In this document: piece after piece, positions 1 through 9,047 of the stretch
Layout: every line of letters starts with the position of its first letter
How positions within the stretch are numbered: the stretch's first letter is position 1
NCBI GenBank assembly: GCA_036845085.1
Contig: DAIUEN010000023.1
Coordinates: 1 to 9,047 of the forward strand
DNA length: 9,047 nucleotides
Source: Candidatus Nanopusillus sp.
GTDB taxonomy: Archaea > Nanobdellota > Nanobdellia > Nanobdellales > Nanobdellaceae
Reading direction: 5' to 3'
Translations under genes and position numbers: made by a program
The notes under the pieces: generated by a model
What the model was told of the DNA's origin: nothing
Seen by the model: the letters and a program-made list of their open reading frames with translations, nothing else
Databases searched by the model: none

Positions 1-57
1 ACAGGTAATTCGGCTGAAATTGATGTTGAAGTATATCCTTTGATTGAACAAAAATGA
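1..57 (+). CDS. 3' end of an upstream CDS (partial, hypothetical protein); probable first visible cistron of the ATGA-coupled operon
   Basis: Frame 1 is open from the window edge (...TGNSAEIDVEVYPLIEQK*). Its TGA at 55-57 shares the tetranucleotide ATGA (54-57) with the next start codon, the same junction used at the three following gene boundaries. Confidence 0.4.
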   Translation, partial: TGNSAEIDVEVYPLIEQK

Positions 58-1127
58 ACGAAAGTATATTAGAAGCTATTTTAGCAACAATTTTTCTATT
101 TCTAGTTATATTAATAGCTATTAATATACCTTATTTAGCAGCTAAACTATTTGGGGTAAATAATCCTTTATTATTACTAGAAACTTCGGCATTTCTAACA
201 TATTCTACATCCAACATAGGAAATATGACAAAACTAGTTTATATCCAGTCACAACCAGTTTTAGGGGCTGAATTCAGAATATCACCTCCGGAAAAATCTC
301 AAGGTTTTCAAGGTTATTATTTAATGTACGGATACTGCATTACTAAAGATCTATGGCAAGAGCTTTTATCTTCGACAATAGATGCGGCTATATCTACTTT
401 TCTACCGTTAAAAGTTACTGGCCAAACCGGAAAAGATATAATTATAAACTTATTTAAGTATAATTACAGACAACTATTTACTGAAACAAAATTTTTAGTT
501 GCTACAGATTTATCTTTAACTTTTTCCCAAAATTATTTATATTATTACGAACAAAAGGCTTCAGATGCCTTAACAAGATCTTTAGTTGATACATTTAGTC
601 CAGAATCTTTACTGCAAACAGCAGCTATGACTACTGTTACTACAACACAAACAATTGTAACTTCTGTATTGAGAGGTATTGGTATGTTTGGTGGAATTGG
701 AGGTATGTTATTAGCTTTTGGTGCAAATTTTGCAATAGGGAGTAGTTTAGTATTATATGATTATCTCACATCTAGAAATGACGAATTTAAAGGATGCTAT
801 ATGCCAGAATTCTTTAAAAATGAAAATCCAAACATCTATTTTAATTATATTCCAATTTATACTTTTCCAATATATTTTAATGAAAATTTCTATATAATAG
901 ATGGATGTAACGAGAAAAAAGCAGAATTTATATGCGATATAAATAAGGGAAATACTCCAATAAATTCAGAAAAAGATAAACATATTATGAGAATATCTTT
1001 AGGATTTTATGATGAAAAATCTAATAAATACTATTACCCAACATATTTAATATTAAAAAAAGAAAAAGATTCTAGTGAAAGAGAAAATGGAAAAATAATT
1101 GTAGGATTTATAATGAATTCAAGATGA
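54..1127 (+). CDS. Hypothetical integral membrane protein, 357 aa. N-terminal TM helix plus an internal Thr-rich/glycine-zipper hydrophobic segment and a Cys-containing C-terminal domain.
   Basis: Long ORF in a genome where stop codons are cheap. ATGA overlaps at both ends. N-terminus is MNES + ILEAILATIFLFLVILIAINIPYLAA. A second hydrophobic region lies at aa ~188-235 (TAAMTTVTTTQTIVTSVL-R-GIGMFGGIGGMLLAFGANFAIGSSLVLY). There are 4 Cys (95, 248, 285, 294). I recognise no family. Confidence 0.75.
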   Translation: MNESILEAILATIFLFLVILIAINIPYLAAKLFGVNNPLLLLETSAFLTYSTSNIGNMTKLVYIQSQPVLGAEFRISPPEKSQGFQGYYLMYGYCITKDLWQELLSSTIDAAISTFLPLKVTGQTGKDIIINLFKYNYRQLFTETKFLVATDLSLTFSQNYLYYYEQKASDALTRSLVDTFSPESLLQTAAMTTVTTTQTIVTSVLRGIGMFGGIGGMLLAFGANFAIGSSLVLYDYLTSRNDEFKGCYMPEFFKNENPNIYFNYIPIYTFPIYFNENFYIIDGCNEKKAEFICDINKGNTPINSEKDKHIMRISLGFYDEKSNKYYYPTYLILKKEKDSSERENGKIIVGFIMNSR

Positions 1128-1957
1128 GATCCGTATCTATAAAAGATATTATAGAATATATTTCAGCTTCAGTAATAATCATAATAGAGTTATTTATAAT
1201 TTTATCTTTCTATCAATTAGTAGTAGTTCAAGCACAATCGCTAAAAAGTTATCAAATCTTTGTACAAAGTTTATATGCAGATAGATTACACTATTGTACA
1301 TATTCAGCTACTGGAAATCCATACTATTTATTTTATTTGCCAGATAATAAAACAATATACGAAAATAAGGAAAAAATAGATAAATGCTATTCTTCTCTAA
1401 AAGGAAATTTTGCTGTAACAGTTTCTAATGAATCTACTGATAAAAAAGTTGAAGTAGAGTTTTGGTCTTTAGAATCTGAAATAAGACCATTTTTCTTTTT
1501 ACTTAGTCTAAATAATATCTCATACTATTATTTTTATACTCCTATAAACATAGAATATAACTCATTAGAATATGGAGCACGATATGTTCATTATATTATA
1601 AATAATACATCTTTGAATATATTTGAGAGAAATAAAAATTTATCTGAAAAGCTCATTACAGAAATATTTGAGATATTAAAGAAATATAAAGAAAATATTA
1701 CTGAAAGTATTTTTAATTTTGAGAAGTTATTATCATCTATGGAAAATATATATATAGAAGGATTTACACAATATAATTTGTATACTTTACAAAGTATAGA
1801 AGCCCTTCCAGTTTTTGTTACTAATTATGAAAATAATCATTTAATGTTTCTATATCCTTTAGGAATAGGGAATATATACAATGCTAAGAAAATGAAGATG
1901 GAATGTGATGTATTATCGGGAAGTGTTAAGAATTGTAAATTAGAAGAAATAAGATGA
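1124..1957 (+). CDS. Hypothetical N-terminally anchored extracytoplasmic protein, 277 aa, Cys-paired and sequon-rich
   Basis: ATGA overlaps at 1124-1127 and 1954-1957. N-terminus is MRSVSIKD + IIEYISASVIIIIELFIILSFYQLVVV. Cys at 58, 88, 261 and 271. Seven N-x-S/T matches (NKT, NES, NIS, NNT/NTS, NLS, NIT). I recognise no family. Confidence 0.75.
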   Translation: MRSVSIKDIIEYISASVIIIIELFIILSFYQLVVVQAQSLKSYQIFVQSLYADRLHYCTYSATGNPYYLFYLPDNKTIYENKEKIDKCYSSLKGNFAVTVSNESTDKKVEVEFWSLESEIRPFFFLLSLNNISYYYFYTPINIEYNSLEYGARYVHYIINNTSLNIFERNKNLSEKLITEIFEILKKYKENITESIFNFEKLLSSMENIYIEGFTQYNLYTLQSIEALPVFVTNYENNHLMFLYPLGIGNIYNAKKMKMECDVLSGSVKNCKLEEIR

Positions 1958-2454
1958 AGGGACAACTATCATTTTATTTAGCTGTAGGATTTTCTGCATT
2001 ATTTATAGTTTTTATGATATTAGTATTTCTATCCTACATAGTATATCCTTCTGGATATATGAGATCAATTTCATCACTACAGCAAATTGGATATGAATAT
2101 AAAATAGGAAATTCTTTTTTGTCGTCTTCTATTTATGTAGATAATTATTATATAGTGGCTATAGATCTATTAGCGGGATCTTATTTAAATGAAGATAAAT
2201 ATGTAAAAGAAAAAATTAAGATCCTTATTAATAATACAACAGTACCACATTATATTAATAATAGTGTTATTTTTGGTATAAATTTGGGAAATGATACAGT
2301 AGGTTTATGTGTTAATAGATTATTCATTTCTTATAAAATAAGTGAAGATAAGGAAATTCAAATATGCCCACCAGTTATGATATATCCTCCAATATTTGTT
2401 GCAGTAAGGGCTGATATTAGTGGAACATACCATGAAGTACATCCAGTAGTATGA
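1954..2454 (+). CDS. Hypothetical small surface protein, 166 aa, with a class III (type IV pilin-like) signal-peptide-like N-terminus
   Basis: N-terminus MKG-QLSFYLAVGFSALFIVFMILVFLSYIV has a basic residue plus Gly directly before a ~25-aa hydrophobic helix, with Gln at the putative +1. There are 2 Cys (119, 138) and 4 sequon matches (NNT/NTT, NNS, NDT). ATGA overlaps on both sides. The size fits a pilin or FlaF/FlaG-type subunit. Confidence 0.7.
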   Translation: MKGQLSFYLAVGFSALFIVFMILVFLSYIVYPSGYMRSISSLQQIGYEYKIGNSFLSSSIYVDNYYIVAIDLLAGSYLNEDKYVKEKIKILINNTTVPHYINNSVIFGINLGNDTVGLCVNRLFISYKISEDKEIQICPPVMIYPPIFVAVRADISGTYHEVHPVV

Positions 2455-3680
2455 AGTCATCATATGCTCCTCTTTTATTAGTAATAGGATCTATTATATT
2501 AACTGTAGCTGGAATATATTATATTACTACGTTTAATGATTTAGTATATAAAAGTGCTCAGTATTTAGCTGAAGATTATGCAAATACTCATATATCTTAT
2601 TATTATATCTTTGTATATCAGCCTTTTGTAATAAGATATAATTTTTTAAATTATGTAGTAACAAATTTATTTTCCAAAGATGAATATAATTTAGAAAGTA
2701 TTTATAGGTCAGATTTAATATCCGGCTATCCAAAATGCAAAAAAAATTATATTATTTATTTATATGATTATGATAATGGAAAAGTAACTTATAAACCTTG
2801 TATTCCTCCGTTGCCAACGGATAATTATTTATCGAAAATTAATGGAATAAATTCTTTATTAAACAAAATTAATCAAGAATTGAATAATATGAATAATCTA
2901 ATTGAAGAAGATGGTATACCTATAAAAAATAAAGGATGCAAATATTCTTTAGGTGTATTTGAATGTGATTACGAATATAATTTCCAAAGAGATATATACT
3001 TCAGTAGATATTTTAACTTAAATGTAGAATATCATTTAATAGAGAATATATTATATTATAATTACTTATTGGGTCAAATATATAACAATACTTTTGCACT
3101 CTTTAATCTTTCTTTATTAAATCTTTCATTTTTGCTAGATAACTATGAAAAATATGAAATTATGGAAAATGGTAATTATATAAAAGTAAAGTTATCTCCA
3201 AAGTCTAATTCTCTATTTCTATTGAATATATATTCAAAAAATAAAATATTTAATGACAATATTAACATTGATATAATTTTACCTTGTTCTTATTTAGAGA
3301 CATATTTAGGTTCATGTAATTTATCTTTAGCAAATAAAGATAATTATGTATCCTTATCTGAGGACATAGAAAAATGCTTAGAAGGTCCTTATGGTGAAAT
3401 TAATCAGACTATAAAAAATATTTTCTTCACGGAAGTAAAAGAATATTATTTAATTGAAAAAAATATAACTTTAACAGATTATAAAGAAGATACAATAAAA
3501 TATGCAAGATTGTCTGATGGTGGATTGCCAGAAATAGAATTATATGATTATTATTTATTATTTACTCTATATAACTGTACAATAGGTTTAGATTCTAATG
3601 GAAATGAAGTAGTATCTTTAGAATATAAAGATTTTAGTTTATTGTTTGAGAATATTCCTTTACTTAAAATTAGAAAATAA
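2451..3680 (+). CDS. Hypothetical N-terminally anchored extracytoplasmic protein, 409 aa, with 8 Cys and sequon-rich; last cistron of the operon
   Basis: ATGA overlap at 2451-2454. N-terminus is MKSSYA + PLLLVIGSIILTVAGIYYITTF. Cys at 96, 117, 163, 172, 279, 289, 309 and 376. Seven N-x-S/T sequons (NNT, NLS x3, NQT, NIT, NCT). The 3' end overlaps the convergent taw3 by 21 nt. I recognise no family. Confidence 0.75.
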   Translation: MKSSYAPLLLVIGSIILTVAGIYYITTFNDLVYKSAQYLAEDYANTHISYYYIFVYQPFVIRYNFLNYVVTNLFSKDEYNLESIYRSDLISGYPKCKKNYIIYLYDYDNGKVTYKPCIPPLPTDNYLSKINGINSLLNKINQELNNMNNLIEEDGIPIKNKGCKYSLGVFECDYEYNFQRDIYFSRYFNLNVEYHLIENILYYNYLLGQIYNNTFALFNLSLLNLSFLLDNYEKYEIMENGNYIKVKLSPKSNSLFLLNIYSKNKIFNDNINIDIILPCSYLETYLGSCNLSLANKDNYVSLSEDIEKCLEGPYGEINQTIKNIFFTEVKEYYLIEKNITLTDYKEDTIKYARLSDGGLPEIELYDYYLLFTLYNCTIGLDSNGNEVVSLEYKDFSLLFENIPLLKIRK

Positions 3681-4255: not shown

Positions 4256-4738
4256 ATGGATAAGAATAAAATTTTGATAAATGTAATATTTTTTATAATT
4301 GTTTTTCCTGTAGCAATTTTATTATATTATTCATATAAAACTTTTTTAAAAGAAAAAGAAAGTGTAAATCCTTTAAATATATATAATCTGCAAGTATATA
4401 GTATAGTTTCTGATAATAATGAGCTGAAAATATACATATACAATCCGAATAATTATTCTGTTGGAATAACATTTACATATTTAGGTCTTATCAATTCTTA
4501 CAAAACTTCTTCAATAGTTACATCTGGAAGTTTTATTGGAAGTATATATGAAATAAAACCAAATTCTACTATAGAATTATCTTATAATTATATTGTAGAT
4601 TTTAATACGAAGTCGGTAATAGAACAATGGAAAAAATTGGGCGGTAGTTTAATGATAACTTTATATTATCAAGATATATATGATAAATCTATAATAGGAA
4701 TAATAAATTATGAAGTAAAAAATATAAAAACTAAGTAA
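4256..4738 (+). CDS. Hypothetical membrane-anchored protein, 160 aa; tentative LEA_2/WHy-like (NDR1/HIN1-type) beta-sandwich ectodomain
   Basis: N-terminus is MDKNK + ILINVIFFIIVFPVAILLYY. It is followed by alternating beta-like segments including ELKIYIYNPNNYSVGITFTY ... IKPNSTIELSYNYIVDF, which resembles the 'l.l.v.NPN..~i' core and later 'a.~.t.v.v' strand of LEA_2/WHy domains. No Cys. The domain assignment is from memory of the motif, not from a search. Confidence 0.6.
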   Translation: MDKNKILINVIFFIIVFPVAILLYYSYKTFLKEKESVNPLNIYNLQVYSIVSDNNELKIYIYNPNNYSVGITFTYLGLINSYKTSSIVTSGSFIGSIYEIKPNSTIELSYNYIVDFNTKSVIEQWKKLGGSLMITLYYQDIYDKSIIGIINYEVKNIKTK

Positions 4739-5921
4739 CTTTGTCTAAGTCGCTTAGAGTATAGATCTTTACTTTATCGCTAGATTTCTGTACAGTTCCT
4801 AAGCATATTATATACTTTATATTTGTCTGTTTTTCGATTTCTTCTAGCATTTCTCTAGTTAATATACCATCCATAACCAAATAAGTTACATTTGGATTTT
4901 TTAATATATTAATATTTAGTTTGTCTATTGGTAATTTGTTTATTATTGAAAAATTACTATCTAATAATATTGCTTGTTCTGTTCTGAAAATATTTTCCAT
5001 TATTGGCTTTAATTTTAATAGTACATTGTCTTTTATCTTTTTTTCTTCTCTTAATCTAAATATATCTTCAATACTTCCTTCCAGTTTTTCATAATAACTT
5101 TTAACTTGGCTAAACTCTATTCTATTCTTCAAGGCTGTCATTATTTCTTTTCTCGATAGTTCTTCAACTTCTTTTCCTGGTTCTGGTCTAGCAACATAAT
5201 CAATTTCTACGTTATTTAACATGGCTTCTTTTATAAGTAGTTCTCCAGCTCTATCTCCGTCGAAAAATACAGTAACAATTTTCTTTTTAGATAGTTCAAC
5301 TATGGTTTTTGGTATATTTAATCCGTTTAATGCAATTACATTAGTTATTCCATATTTTAATAGATTTAATACATCTGCTCTTCCTTCTACTAATATTATT
5401 TCTTCAGATCTATCAATATCAGGACCTGCTGGTAATTTTTCTGGTCCATATTCAATTAAGGTTTTCATTTTTTGAGAATATTCTAAATATAATAAAAGTT
5501 CTTTAGTGTCTGGTAGTTCTTCATTTATTAATCTATTTAGCAATTCTTTTGCTCTTTCTAATATATACTGTACTTTAGTTTTTCTAACATCCTCTATTTT
5601 TGATACTTTAATCGTTGCATGTGCAGGTCCTACTCTATTTACTGTTTCTAATGCAGCTCCTATCAATGTAGTTTCAAATCTATTCAAACTTGTTGGTATT
5701 ATTATTTCTCCTATTGTTTTGTTTTCTTCATGCCTTAATTCTACATTTATTCTCCCAATTTTTCCAGATCTTTGTAATTCTCTAAGATCCAATTCTGGCC
5801 CCAATAGTCCTTCTGTTTGTCCAAATATAGCTCCTATTACATCCGGTTTTTCTACTACACCATCAACATATATTGTAGCATATATTATGTACTTTACGAA
5901 TGGAGGTGCTACCTTCGCCAT
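4731..5921 (-). CDS. dnaG: Archaeal DnaG (TOPRIM-domain primase-like protein, exosome-associated)
   Basis: Conserved archaeal DnaG N-terminal domain (YIIYATIYVDGVVEKPDVIGAIFGQTEGLLG...LRELQRSGKIGRI). TOPRIM core with catalytic Glu in ILVEGRADVLNL (E179, nt 5385-5387) and the DxD motif FFDGDRAGE (D221/D223). Conserved C-terminal LVMDGILT....E block. 396 aa. Confidence 0.93.
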   Translation of the reverse strand: MAKVAPPFVKYIIYATIYVDGVVEKPDVIGAIFGQTEGLLGPELDLRELQRSGKIGRINVELRHEENKTIGEIIIPTSLNRFETTLIGAALETVNRVGPAHATIKVSKIEDVRKTKVQYILERAKELLNRLINEELPDTKELLLYLEYSQKMKTLIEYGPEKLPAGPDIDRSEEIILVEGRADVLNLLKYGITNVIALNGLNIPKTIVELSKKKIVTVFFDGDRAGELLIKEAMLNNVEIDYVARPEPGKEVEELSRKEIMTALKNRIEFSQVKSYYEKLEGSIEDIFRLREEKKIKDNVLLKLKPIMENIFRTEQAILLDSNFSIINKLPIDKLNINILKNPNVTYLVMDGILTREMLEEIEKQTNIKYIICLGTVQKSSDKVKIYTLSDLDKVT

Positions 5922-5956
5922 TAATAAATATTCTTGAAAAATTATTTAGATTTATA

Positions 5957-6145
5957 CTATTCTATTATTTCCATAGTTTTATTGGAAATATTCTTTACAG
6001 TTTCATTTGTAAAGTTAGATAATTTTTGTGAAGCTCCAGATCCTCCTTTTTCTAAGTTAAGTACAATATAAACAGAAACTATTAATATTATTATCGCAAT
6101 AATAAGAAGTATTATTGTTGACATTGAAACATCTGATTTTTTCAT
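5957..6145 (-). CDS. Hypothetical 62-aa membrane-anchored mini-protein with a sequon-dense C-terminal tail (possible small pilin-like or glycosylated surface peptide)
   Basis: MKKSDVSMS + TIILLIIAIIILIVSVYIVL (strong TM helix), then a flexible GGSGAS linker, then NFT, NET, NIS and NKT within the last 20 residues. It is co-directional with dnaG and 35 nt upstream of it. A TATA-like box sits ~27 nt upstream of its ATG. Small size limits confidence. Confidence 0.5.
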   Translation of the reverse strand: MKKSDVSMSTIILLIIAIIILIVSVYIVLNLEKGGSGASQKLSNFTNETVKNISNKTMEIIE

Positions 6146-6150
6146 AATGT

Positions 6151-6159
6151 ATTATAAAA
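6151..6159 (+). promoter_or_regulatory. Candidate TATA box for a leaderless or near-leaderless argS transcript
   Basis: ATTATAAAA is centred ~26 nt upstream of the argS ATG (6181). No Shine-Dalgarno-like GGAGG/GGTGA lies in the spacer. TATA-like strings are cheap in this AT-rich DNA, so confidence is low. Confidence 0.35.
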
Positions 6160-6168
6160 CTTTTCTTA

Positions 6169-6176
6169 TTTTTAAA
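6169..6176 (-). promoter_or_regulatory. Candidate TATA box for the 62-aa gene (and possibly dnaG), opposed to the argS box
   Basis: The minus strand reads TTTAAAAA, centred ~27 nt upstream of the minus-strand ATG (6145-6143). Confidence 0.3.
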
Positions 6177-6180
6177 TATT

Positions 6181-8109
6181 ATGTGGTTACTGAAAAAATA
6201 TTTAAATGATCTGGATTTAGAATATTCAGAGCCCCCTAGAGGAATAAAATATGATATATCCATAAAATTGTTTAAAGAACTAAAAAAAGGGAAAAAAGCC
6301 GAAGAATTAGTAAATGAAATAATAAGTAGAATAAAAGATTATGTATTAGAATATAAATTTATTAATGGATATCTTAATTTAAAATTAGATTTTAGAAAAA
6401 TATTAGATGAAATTGAGAATTTGTTTATATTTGAAAAAAAAGATAAAGTAATTTATATAGAACATACTTCTGCAAATCCAAATAAACAATTACATATAGG
6501 ACATTTAAGAAATTTTATTCTGGGAGATTCTATATATAGATTATATGAATCTCTAAACTATAAGACATATGTTATAAATTATATAGACGATACTGGAGCG
6601 CAAGTTTCAGATGTAGTCTTAGCAATATATTTATTAAAATTTCCAGAAGATCCAAAAGAATTTGAAATAAATAAAGTTAAAGAAAATATAATCAATTTTT
6701 TAAAGAAAGAAAGTATATACAAAGAAGAATATGATAAAAAAATATTAGAAATTATAAAAGAAAGAACTGATGCAATTAGGAAACTATATGGATATGATGT
6801 TCCAAAAAAATATGATCATTATATTGGGGATTTTATTTATGTTATAGTTAATAAATTATATGATCTAATTCCAGATTTAAAAAGATACAAGTCTTTCATA
6901 AATGATAAAATAGAAAAGGGAGACAATGAAATATATGACTTAGCTAAGAGAATTGTAGATAATGTATTAGAATCTCAATTAGAAACCTTATGGAAATTTA
7001 ATGTGTATTACGACTTATTTGTAAGAGAATCAGATATAATAAAATATAATATATTTGATAAAGCCTTTGAGATTTTAAAAGAAAAGAATTTAATAAAATA
7101 TGAAACAGAAGGAGAGAAAAAAGGATGTTGGGTTATTGATTTAGATAGATGGGATGAATTCAAAAACTATGAAGATAAAAAGAAAGTTTTAATAAGGTCT
7201 GATGGAACATCTGTATACTTAGCTAAAGATATAGCATATGCTTTCTGGAAGTTAGGAATTATTAAAGATAGCATAAAATTTAAAGAATACAAACTACAGC
7301 CAAATTCTAAATATATTTATGAAATAAATATAAATGGAAACTTTATTCCAGAAGTTTGTGATATATCTATAAATGTTATAGGGTTTGAACAAACATATCT
7401 TCAATTAATAATAAAAAAAATAATAGAAGAATTAAATGTAAATAAAAAATATATTCACTATTCTTACGGACTAGTTATGTTATCTAAGAATACTGCAAAA
7501 ATATTTGGTATAGATGAAGATATTGTAAGAATGTCTGGAAGGAAAGGTATAAATATAAATGTAGATGATTTATATGAAAAATTATATCAAAAAGTTTATA
7601 ATTTGATGAAAGAAAGATTAAAAGATCTTGATGAAAAAAAATTAGAAGAATTAAGTCACAAGGTAACAATTTCTATTATATCATATGAAATATTAAAATA
7701 TTCTAGAAACAGTTTAATAGTATTTGATTTTGATAAAATATTAAATTTCGAAGAAGGAAATGGAATATATCTTTTATATACTTATGCAAGAATAAATTCT
7801 CTTTTAAAAAAAGCTCCAAAAATTGAGAAAATGTATTTTACAGAATTAAATGATTTAGAAAAGAAATTAATAGTAAAAATATTACAGTTTAAAGATGTAT
7901 TATACGATGTAGAAAAATCTTTAGATATAAACGACCTAGTTAAATATACAATAGATCTTGTAAAATCTTTTAATGAATTTTACCAAAGTGTTCCAATTAT
8001 TAGTGAATTAGATAAATATCCTCACAGATTACTTTTGGTGTTATTGACTAAGAAGGTATTAGAGAAAATCTTTTATATATTAAAGATAGAGCCTGTAGAA
8101 GTAATATAA
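6181..8109 (+). CDS. argS: Arginine--tRNA ligase (arginyl-tRNA synthetase, class I)
   Basis: Block EHTSANPNKQLHIGHLRN with HIGH at nt 6493-6504. YIDDTGAQ follows the Rossmann start. MSGRKG (nt 7531-7548) sits at the KMSKS-equivalent position typical of ArgRS (MSTRxG). C-terminal DALR-type anticodon-binding helices (YLLYTYARINSLLKK...). 642 aa. Confidence 0.95.
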   Translation: MWLLKKYLNDLDLEYSEPPRGIKYDISIKLFKELKKGKKAEELVNEIISRIKDYVLEYKFINGYLNLKLDFRKILDEIENLFIFEKKDKVIYIEHTSANPNKQLHIGHLRNFILGDSIYRLYESLNYKTYVINYIDDTGAQVSDVVLAIYLLKFPEDPKEFEINKVKENIINFLKKESIYKEEYDKKILEIIKERTDAIRKLYGYDVPKKYDHYIGDFIYVIVNKLYDLIPDLKRYKSFINDKIEKGDNEIYDLAKRIVDNVLESQLETLWKFNVYYDLFVRESDIIKYNIFDKAFEILKEKNLIKYETEGEKKGCWVIDLDRWDEFKNYEDKKKVLIRSDGTSVYLAKDIAYAFWKLGIIKDSIKFKEYKLQPNSKYIYEININGNFIPEVCDISINVIGFEQTYLQLIIKKIIEELNVNKKYIHYSYGLVMLSKNTAKIFGIDEDIVRMSGRKGININVDDLYEKLYQKVYNLMKERLKDLDEKKLEELSHKVTISIISYEILKYSRNSLIVFDFDKILNFEEGNGIYLLYTYARINSLLKKAPKIEKMYFTELNDLEKKLIVKILQFKDVLYDVEKSLDINDLVKYTIDLVKSFNEFYQSVPIISELDKYPHRLLLVLLTKKVLEKIFYILKIEPVEVI

Positions 8110-8119
8110 TTTATAAAAA
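8110..8119 (+). promoter_or_regulatory. Candidate TATA box for rps10
   Basis: TTTATAAAAA lies immediately after the argS stop, centred ~28 nt upstream of ATG 8143 (a second ATG is at 8146). No SD-like motif. Confidence 0.4.
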
Positions 8120-8142
8120 TTAATAACAACAAAATATTTACA

Positions 8143-8448
8143 ATGATGGTAAGAATTAAAATGTGGAGTACTAATTTACAAGCACTAAATTCATTCACAA
8201 ATGAAATATTAAAAATTGTAGAACAATTAGGGATAGAAAAAAAAGGACCTATATATTTACCAACAAAAGTTATGAGAGTACCTACTATGAGAACATTTGG
8301 TAGGAGAGGTACTAAAATATACGAAACATATCAAGCAAGACTTTATAGGAGATTTATTGATGTAGCATATGACGAAAGATTTTTTAAGAGTTTCTTAAGA
8401 CTTCAGATACCACCAAACATAAATCTATTAATAAAAATTTTAAAATAA
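8143..8448 (+). CDS. rps10: 30S ribosomal protein uS10 (S10)
   Basis: 101 aa. RIK(M/L)....L......I......G....GPI.LPTK......R.......T...(F/Y)..R...R.ID pattern (here VRIKMWSTNLQALNSFTNEILKIVEQLGIEKKGPIYLPTKVMRVPTMR...YQARLYRRFIDV). TTTATAAAAA box lies ~28 nt upstream. Confidence 0.9.
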   Translation: MMVRIKMWSTNLQALNSFTNEILKIVEQLGIEKKGPIYLPTKVMRVPTMRTFGRRGTKIYETYQARLYRRFIDVAYDERFFKSFLRLQIPPNINLLIKILK

Positions 8449-8455
8449 GCTATAA

Positions 8456-8465
8456 TTTATAAATA
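8456..8465 (+). promoter_or_regulatory. Candidate TATA box for nop5
   Basis: TTTATAAATA is centred ~25 nt upstream of ATG 8485, in the 36-nt rps10-nop5 spacer. Confidence 0.4.
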
Positions 8466-8484
8466 ATTTTTTTATTTAAATTAT

Positions 8485-9047
8485 ATGCAGTATGTGCTAA
8501 TAAGATATGATTATGTATACTATTTTGATGAGAATCTTAATCTAATAAAAAAAGAAAAAGCAAATTTTAGTTATGATGAAATAAAAAGTTTGTTTAATGG
8601 AGAAATAGATAAAATTAGGGAAAAATTCAAGGATTATAAAATATTAGGATTTGATGTTAAAGACACAAACTTAATAAGAAAAGCTTTAGATTACATTGAA
8701 ATAAAGAATGATCTAGATTTGTTTTTATTAGTATTGAAGAAATCTATATCTGATAAAATTTCAAAAGACTTAATAGTAATACAGTCGATAGAATTTTTAG
8801 ATGATTTAGATAAGATAATTAATTTATTTATGGAGAGATTTAGAGAGTGGTATGAGCTATATTTTCCAGAAATATCAAAAAAGTATGGAGATCACGAAAA
8901 ATTTGTTAAAATAATATTAAATAAAAAAAGAGAAGAGTTAATGGAAGAATATAATATACAGGAGACTATGGGTGGAAAAATATTTGATGAAAATGATTAT
9001 AAGATTCTAAATGAGATTGCAGAAAAAATAGATAGCCTATATAAATT
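8485..9047 (+). CDS. nop5: Nop5 (Nop56/58) C/D box sRNP core protein, 5' partial (continues past the window end)
   Basis: Not in the supplied ORF track because no stop is reached. I translated it by hand from ATG 8485. MQYVLIRYDYVYYFDENLNLI... (N-terminal fibrillarin-binding domain) is followed by LIVIQSIEFLDDLDKIINLFMERFREWYELYFPEISKKYGDHEKFVKII...ETMGGKIFDENDYKILNEIAEKIDSLYK. This matches the hallmark ...AI..LDD.DK.IN....RLREWY.LHFPEL... and ...SMGA.....D...I..LA..I..LY segment of archaeal Nop5. Confidence 0.85.
   Translation, partial: MQYVLIRYDYVYYFDENLNLIKKEKANFSYDEIKSLFNGEIDKIREKFKDYKILGFDVKDTNLIRKALDYIEIKNDLDLFLLVLKKSISDKISKDLIVIQSIEFLDDLDKIINLFMERFREWYELYFPEISKKYGDHEKFVKIILNKKREELMEEYNIQETMGGKIFDENDYKILNEIAEKIDSLYK

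Follow-up and report, generated by a model that had tools for sequence, protein, structure and literature searches.

A candidate pilin-like protein with a class III signal-peptide motif in a conserved orphan operon of Nanopusillaceae

Introduction

What kind of surface protein is encoded by a 166-amino-acid (166-aa) gene of no recognised family that lies within a run of overlapping genes of an archaeal hot-spring symbiont with a very small genome? The DNA analysed here, which we call the window, is a stretch of 9047 bases that makes up the entire contig C23 of a metagenome-assembled genome (MAG) of Nanopusillaceae (Nanoarchaeota). The MAG itself (G000; 570 kb in 58 contigs, 24% G+C) has an estimated completeness of 89%. 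The relatives of the window are likewise Nanopusillaceae: MAGs of that name, Candidatus Nanobsidianus stetteri, strain YN1, and a closed genome of 605,887 bp. The 166-aa protein begins MKGQLSFYLAVGFSALFIVFMILVFL, and an earlier note, made from the sequence alone, read its start, MKG|QLSF, as a class III (type IV prepilin-like) signal peptide. We lean towards the view that the product is a class III signal-peptide protein and serves as a pilin-like subunit encoded by a conserved orphan surface operon.

Results

An N-terminus shared with the archaellins

Translation bore out the elements that the earlier note had picked out, namely a 166-aa cistron with MKG|QLSF and a hydrophobic helix, two Cys residues and a cluster of sequons. 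The open reading frame (ORF) begins at the first start of its frame, and no alternative in-frame start lies upstream. No charged residue occurs between K2 and R37, a stretch of 34 uncharged residues. Residues 2-5, K-G-Q-L, meet the FlaFind 1.2 core motif, [KRDE][GA][ALIFQMVED][ILMVTAS] (PMC4307647), and they match the sites at which EppA processes its substrates (KG|QL, KG|QI and KG|QV), KGQL being the site given for EpdD (PMC4371748). The start M-K-G-Q is also identical in both archaellins of the MAG (PF01917; C43:993-1835 and C43:3027-3620, minus strand). In one of these archaellins the likeness extends further (MKGQMGF compared with MKGQLSF): the Phe at +4 is shared, and the residue at +3 is Gly rather than Ser, Gly at +3 being important for Methanococcus voltae FlaK (PMC4307647).

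Does this motif exceed what chance would provide? Among the 669 ORF products of the MAG, [KR]GQ within residues 2-10 was seen four times against 0.6 expected. The only carriers other than the 166-aa protein are the two archaellins (PF01917, E 1e-21 and 2e-17) and one FlaG/F-like protein on contig C11 that matches PF01917 weakly (29.3 bits). The prepilin-type motif of the 166-aa protein thus exceeds chance, and the class III motif proposed from the sequence stands on its fit to FlaFind, its match to the EppA sites and its identity with the archaellin start.

The main rival explanation is that the product is an uncleaved signal-anchor (type II) membrane protein, the helix being a tether, the likeness to a prepilin site being incidental, and the operon building a membrane-bound envelope complex instead of a pilus-like fibre. 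The positive-inside rule favours it, since a basic residue is predicted ahead of the hydrophobic helix of any anchor whose N-terminus lies inside the cell. However, possession of the archaellins' exact M-K-G-Q is improbable by chance when the other three carriers are all archaellum proteins. We regard an uncleaved anchor as a possibility to be taken seriously, if on the unlikely side.

A genome-wide Gln signature of anchored proteins

The same question can be put to a looser motif, a basic residue followed by any residue and then Gln. In the MAG, [KR]-x-Q near the N-terminus is found in 16 of 104 N-terminally anchored proteins and in 5 of the 565 others (odds ratio 20, Fisher p = 4e-10). The closed relative used for comparison throughout (G001) gives a similar result, with 23 of 99 anchored proteins and 7 of 571 others (odds ratio 24, Fisher p = 6e-15). 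When Q was replaced by N, S, T, E, D, G or A in the same enrichment test, no excess was seen. The 16 carriers in the MAG have no BLAST similarity to one another past residue 35, and the signal therefore does not stem from recent paralogy. At position −1 these 16 carry S in seven cases, G in four, N in three, and L and Y once each (small in 11 of 16), while the 23 carriers of G001 have T, S and L four times each, G and N three times each, E twice, and I, A and K once each (small in 12 of 23). Gln two residues past the basic residue is thus specifically enriched in anchored proteins, and it is kept between orthologues even though the residue at −1 varies, which argues against an uncleaved anchor with an incidental motif.

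Two further sets of proteins were noted in the MAG. On contig C36, a Pilin_N-like pilin with the start MAKG|ISPIIATI (C36:3751-4212, +) precedes a 274-aa protein with the N-terminus MKYQ (C36:4248-5072, +), a [KR]-x-Q carrier with a bulky −1 residue that adjoins a canonical pilin; its counterpart in G001 (211983-212825) starts MKLQ. The second set comprises very small proteins of 60-130 aa, encoded at window positions 5957-6145 (−) and at C3:70-258, C3:3676-3879, C3:3872-4066 and C2:8455-8853, each with a basic leader, a single hydrophobic helix and a short Gly/Ser tail. They look like a mini pilin-like family, and the G001 counterparts of the C2:8455-8853 protein start MVKRTQGLPINTIVLAIIA and MVKKGQSIAINTIIILIIA.

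Site conservation within the family

Orthologues of the 166-aa protein, at 24-35% identity, are present in 12 of 13 Nanopusillus genomes, in one genome of another genus and among hot-spring metagenome proteins. The orthologue in G001 (47796-48293) starts MKIQIGFF, and one that reads KKSQIGFF lies at about 344.6 kb of AP031373. A single-sequence search of a collection of 5.8 billion proteins matched only the query itself, and a scan of genome contigs for the locus returned five loci only, all from Nanopusillaceae. Genome and profile searches together yielded the 24 distinct sequences on which the following tally is based.

Position −2 is Lys or Arg in all 24 members of the family. Position −1 is S in ten, N in five, G and I in four each, and F in one; position +1 is Q in 11, F in ten, V in two and Y in one. 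Further into the protein, +3 is S in 12, G in ten and D in two, and +4 is F in 22 and Y in two. All members except one (23 of 24) have either a small −1 residue (G or S) or Gln at +1, and a second clade of the family reads M[KR][GS]FISFFL. We also considered a bacterial-style cleavage after residue 6 (Q-I-G|F-F in Nanopusillus, Q-L-S|F-Y here); this was rejected because two family members have Asp there.

Mean column conservation is highest in the entire protein at residues 4-10 (QLSFYLA), where it reaches 0.78, compared with 0.44 for residues 11-30 and about 0.5 for the head. Pilin N-termini usually show such a conservation peak, which a passive anchor seldom does. Likewise, if the helix were a simple tether there would be no need for residues 4-10 to be conserved above the rest of it, a further respect in which an uncleaved anchor fits the family poorly.

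A divergent candidate prepilin peptidase

Does the lineage have an enzyme that could cleave such a site? Archaellins and related archaellum-cluster proteins are present in 18 of the 19 family genomes, and most of them start [KR][GATS]|Q; the common starts of this type are MKG|Q, MAKMKG|Q, MVRA|Q, MVRT|Q, MIRG|Q, MVKT|Q and MMSRS|Q. It follows that the lineage peptidase has to act on sites of the type [KR]-[G/A/T/S] with Gln next, and on leaders of only three residues. Cleavage of leaders as short as 3-4 residues is established for enzymes of the PibD type (PMC4307647). The same comparison shows that the earlier note was too strict in calling Ser after a basic residue non-canonical in the neighbouring cistrons, since the long archaellins of this lineage have A, T, S or G at −1.

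A scan of the MAG for PF01478 (A24) gave one match, at the start of contig C27 (C27:45-152, 23 bits), within an ORF that reads MLEYYYIIFYLNGLLLMIASYYDFKQKSVPD and runs off the contig (C27:3-188, −). The C-terminal 160 residues were located by tblastn at the end of contig C18 (C18:10584-11072, −), where the invariant motifs LVEGDW and EGAPF(I/V)P are present. Homologues of PF01478 occur in 17 of 19 family genomes, one per genome, and are 280-334 aa long where complete; a 327-aa ORF in L037 is one example. Two of them, at 41 and 27 bits, pass the Pfam cut-off, and the scores of the others are 17-26 bits. When six homologues were aligned, the first hydrophobic segment, a membrane helix, proved to contain an invariant Asp, and AIGD, a one-residue variant of the GxGD/GxHyD motif (motif per PMC4307647), was likewise invariant.

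The split C27/C18 gene is probably, though not certainly, a very divergent A24-type prepilin peptidase. The earlier note held that the lack of a prepilin peptidase gene in the genome would speak against its proposal; a divergent gene was found, and that objection falls. The lineage would thus carry an A24-type peptidase whose homologues are mostly missed by standard thresholds and routine annotation.

Predicted structure and the nature of the head

An AlphaFold model built from a six-sequence alignment was unusable (predicted local distance difference test, pLDDT, 46), and a 17-sequence alignment was used instead. The resulting model (pLDDT 79.9; predicted template modelling score, pTM, 0.60) consists of a helix at residues 2-30, a break at Y31-P32-S33, a helix at residues 34-56, an alpha/beta head made of four beta-hairpin-like strand pairs and two helices, and a disordered tail from residue 146. 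The first three blocks of ten residues have pLDDT values of 88, 97 and 85. Of the pilin 'lollipop' with which the earlier note proposed to compare the model, the layout is seen, an extended N-terminal helix and a globular head; the head itself matched no solved pilin.

The short basic n-region followed by a hydrophobic stretch would also be compatible with a Sec-type secreted protein that loses its N-terminal hydrophobic segment to signal peptidase I. We consider this very improbable: the 34-residue uncharged stretch and the confidently predicted 29-residue helix far exceed a Sec h-region, and it would be senseless for the best-conserved residues of the protein, 4-10, to lie in a peptide that is discarded.

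The comparable size and the single N-terminal helix also recall the FlaF/FlaG-like archaellum components, anchored beta-sandwich proteins that bind the surface layer (S-layer), which the earlier note had offered as an alternative. The predicted model, however, is alpha/beta and not a beta-sandwich, and no FlaF or FlaG is among its Foldseek matches. The 166-aa protein has no PF01917 match, whereas the FlaG/F-like candidate of the MAG on contig C11 gets 29 bits. Moreover, the gene belongs to a separate conserved operon far from the archaellin genes, which are on contig C43 in the MAG and which in G001 lie at 351-355 kb, compared with 48 kb for the operon. A FlaF/FlaG-like component is accordingly, in our judgement, the least credible of the readings considered here.

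Is the head glycosylated? Its sequons exceed expectation (Table 1), and the same tendency is seen across the MAG, where anchored proteins have 12.7 sequons per 1000 aa (observed/expected 1.35) and the remaining proteins 5.7 (1.01). No homologue of STT3/AglB (PF02516) was detected in the MAG or in four closed relatives (G001, G004, G007 and G020), and for this reason glycosylation of the head is suggested by the sequon excess only. Either the oligosaccharyltransferase is too divergent for detection or the sequons are unused. Of the glycosylated subunit that the note envisaged, the sequon excess is confirmed and a matching enzyme was not found.

A conserved orphan operon

The 166-aa gene is the third of four genes in the window whose starts and stops overlap (54-1127, 1124-1957, 1954-2454 and 2451-3680). 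It shares an ATGA with each neighbour, at 1954-1957 between the preceding stop and its own ATG and at 2451-2454 between its stop and the start that follows. The features of the protein and of its operon partners are collected in Table 1. The order of genes is the same in every relative examined: proteins of about 400, 300, 360, 280, 160 and 500 aa, then taw3, a 157-aa anchored protein and dnaG. Most operon partners start with [KR][G/A/S/T] ahead of a hydrophobic helix, and one starts with acidic residues. None of the ten cluster proteins of G001 has a Pfam match.

Table 1. Features of the 166-aa gene, its product and its operon partners, in window coordinates
Feature	Position	Strand	Basis or remark
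Upstream operon gene, final 18 codons	1..57	+	Translation; stop overlaps next start (ATGA 54-57)
Operon partner, 357 aa, acidic N-terminus MNES|ILEA followed by a helix	54..1127	+	Gene order conserved in relatives; no Pfam match
Operon partner, 277 aa, MRS|VSIKDIIEYI	1124..1957	+	Orthologues retain [KR][SGA] at the site; no Pfam match
166-aa orphan protein gene	1954..2454	+	ORF list; stop included
Putative three-residue class III leader, M-K-G	1954..1962	+	Predicted cleavage G3/Q4; KGQL fits FlaFind 1.2
Uncharged hydrophobic H-domain, residues 4-30, predicted helix	1963..2043	+	AlphaFold helix 2-30
Second, amphipathic helix, residues 34-56, after the Y31-P32-S33 break	2053..2121	+	AlphaFold model
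Alpha/beta head domain, residues 57-145, without recognisable relatives	2122..2388	+	
Four N-x-S/T sequons, N93, N94, N102 and N113	2230..2298	+	4 observed, 1.1 expected from the protein's own composition
Cys119 (2308-2310) and Cys138 (2365-2367), probable extracellular disulfide	2308..2367	+	Both invariant in all alignments
Operon partner, 409 aa, MKS|SYAPLLLVIG	2451..3680	+	Most orthologues retain [KR][STG]-S, one N-T-S; no Pfam match

Contigs C52 and C3 of the MAG appear to carry the part of the operon that lies upstream. Contig C52 contains an ORF at 73-1140 (C52:73-1140, +) and a 281-aa ORF (C52:1194-2039, +) that starts MKGSAGLFLKIIFE and runs off the end. The N-terminus of the latter resembles those of the proteins of about 300 aa that precede the 357-aa homologues in relatives, and the rest of the gene that ends at window positions 1-57 probably sits on this contig. 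Similarly, contig C3 encodes a 407-aa protein, MKKASTGS (C3:589-1812, −), that is similar to the product of the relatives' first operon gene.

Downstream of the four overlapping genes, the window encodes taw3, a 160-aa anchored protein, dnaG, a 62-aa anchored protein, argS, rps10 (ribosomal protein S10) and nop5. The 160-aa protein (4256-4738, +), MDKNKILINVIFF, is anchored at its N-terminus, and all relatives examined have it in place between taw3 and dnaG. It starts 5 bp from the divergent taw3 start and has no confident family, the best match being a SLAP domain at 19 bits, under the cut-off. Over window positions 4731-9045, comparison with the relatives' loci L018-L022 shows that synteny is lost past dnaG: the MAG has the 62-aa gene, argS, rps10 and nop5, whereas the relatives have a gene for about 370 aa, one for about 100 aa, one for 286 aa and a long ORF at the end of the stretch. 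In the MAG this post-dnaG block of the relatives is on contig C3, adjoining a 730-aa anchored protein.

Discussion

How well does a pilin-like subunit withstand the evidence as a whole? Several findings weigh against it, and they concern the site, the head, the peptidase and the assembly machinery in turn. First, the Gly at −1 is not conserved, the Nanopusillus orthologues reading MKIQIGFF, MKNQIGFF, MKFQIGFF or KKSQIGFF, and we know of no instance in which FlaK or PibD cleaves at a bulky −1 residue. For M. voltae FlaK, Gly at −1 is critical (PMC4307647). Second, the 166-aa protein has no Pfam match (E <= 0.1) and no NCBIfam match, hhalign gave a probability of 0.4% against the Pilin_N pilin of the MAG and of 1% against an archaellin, aligning only about 21 residues with the archaellin, and the predicted head matched no solved pilin, archaellin, pseudopilin or FlaF/FlaG structure. 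Third, the peptidase homologues score under the Pfam cut-off in most genomes of the family, the middle of the MAG's own gene, which in relatives has AIGD and which should carry the second catalytic Asp, falls in an assembly gap, and searches of NCBIfam and the PDB with the peptidase, including one with a six-sequence profile, found no match, FlaK in the PDB among those not matched. Because those searches were empty, the peptidase assignment rests on the PF01478 scores and the invariant motifs. Fourth, no T2SSE ATPase, T2SSF platform or peptidase gene is found in or near the operon, as judged from its flanks in the closed genome G001, where T2SSE gives, at the nearest, a weak match about 40 kb distant and no T2SSF occurs within 290 kb. 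The MAG does have genes of both kinds in other places, six for T2SSE and six for T2SSF, all passing the Pfam cut-off.

Part of this evidence speaks directly for an uncleaved signal anchor: 10 of the 24 family members carry I, N or F at −1, the head has neither a pilin-like fold nor a pilin-like sequence signal, and the assembly genes are not in cis in the closed genomes. Set against these points are the start shared with the archaellins, the enrichment of Gln and the conservation of residues 4-10, and on this evidence we continue to favour a class III, pilin-like protein.

Among known systems, the 166-aa protein comes closest to the class III proteins found by FlaFind-type searches, the substrates of PibD, FlaK and EppA. 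Like them, it has a short basic leader, a K-G|Q-L site, a long uncharged helix, an A24 peptidase gene in the genome and a predicted helix with a head; as in minor-pilin sets, its gene is clustered with those of other helix-headed proteins. Unlike them, its head is without a detectable relative, −1 is not limited to G or A in its orthologues, the operon has neither ATPase nor platform, and its cleavage is predicted. Similarly, the EppA-processed DUF361 pilins of Methanococcus maripaludis (EpdA-E, with the sites KG|QV, KG|QL, KG|QI and RA|QI) are small proteins with sequons and Gln at +1. They differ in having Glu at +5 (PMC3875500), where the 166-aa protein has Tyr (Q-L-S-F-Y), and leaders of 5-13 residues (PMC3875500) rather than three. 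Thus the EppA likeness suggested by the earlier note is upheld for the Gln at +1, whereas a pilin of the DUF361 type is contradicted by the missing +5 Glu and the lack of a PF04021 match. Membership of DUF361 (PF04021), Pilin_N (PF07790) or the archaellins was rejected, as the protein matches no Pfam or NCBIfam family; in the same genome the product of C12:11715-12215 gets 27.5 bits for Pilin_N.

In Methanococcus, Gln at +1 separates pilins from archaellins. This is not the case in the present lineage, whose archaellins also carry Gln at +1. The archaellins of the MAG have M-K-G-Q and then a hydrophobic helix, as does the 166-aa protein, but there is no homology past about 21 residues and the predicted head is different. 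With minor-pilin and pseudopilin operons, such as epd of M. maripaludis and gspG-K of the bacterial type II secretion system (T2SS), the Nanopusillaceae cluster shares consecutive, translationally coupled genes whose products each have an N-terminal helix and a divergent head; it differs in having no Pfam matches, in being unlinked to machinery, and in having one member with an acidic N-terminus.

We propose the following route for the 166-aa protein. It would be inserted with its N-terminus inside the cell, and a single divergent A24-type prepilin peptidase would then remove M-K-G, so that the mature protein would begin at Gln4, which might be cyclised to pyroglutamate. The 27-residue hydrophobic helix would keep the protein in the membrane and could dock with the other helix-headed proteins of the translationally coupled operon, giving a pilus-like or pseudopilus-like surface assembly driven by a type IV ATPase/platform pair encoded elsewhere. 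The head, residues 57-145, would face outward as a lineage-specific alpha/beta domain with one disulfide (C119-C138) and would probably be glycosylated. The motif, the layout of the protein, the peptidase gene, the conservation of the operon and the genome-wide [KR]-x-Q signature are seen in the data; cleavage, assembly into a filament and any part in host contact are inferred.

A broader idea can be put forward more speculatively. Nanopusillaceae may mark all of their prepilin-like proteins, archaellins included, by [KR]-x-|-Gln, with the Gln at +1 and not a small residue at −1 as the main determinant for the single, highly divergent A24 peptidase. If so, subunits of the 15-nm second appendage of these symbionts, or of a filament or tube of their attachment organelle, might come from the 166-aa family and its orphan operon. 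We think it unlikely that this idea is correct.

Finally, what would such a protein mean for these organisms? Their cultured relatives, Nanobdella aerobiophila and strain YN1, have archaella, a second appendage and a large attachment organelle (PMC11104419, PMC11420986); no protein components have been identified for the second appendage or for the organelle, the latter having been seen by cryo-tomography (PMC11104419, PMC11420986). Taken alone, the 166-aa protein is one more divergent pilin-like orphan. The present analysis contributes the [KR]-x-Q statistic across the genome, a comparison with the archaellins, the family-wide tally of the site and the split A24 peptidase gene. A short list of likely prepilin-peptidase substrates, 16 in the MAG and 23 in G001 among about 670 ORF products each, would narrow the search for parts of the appendage and the organelle. 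On that list the 166-aa protein is the non-archaellum candidate with the most canonical site, and its family is a candidate part of the appendage or of the attachment organelle.

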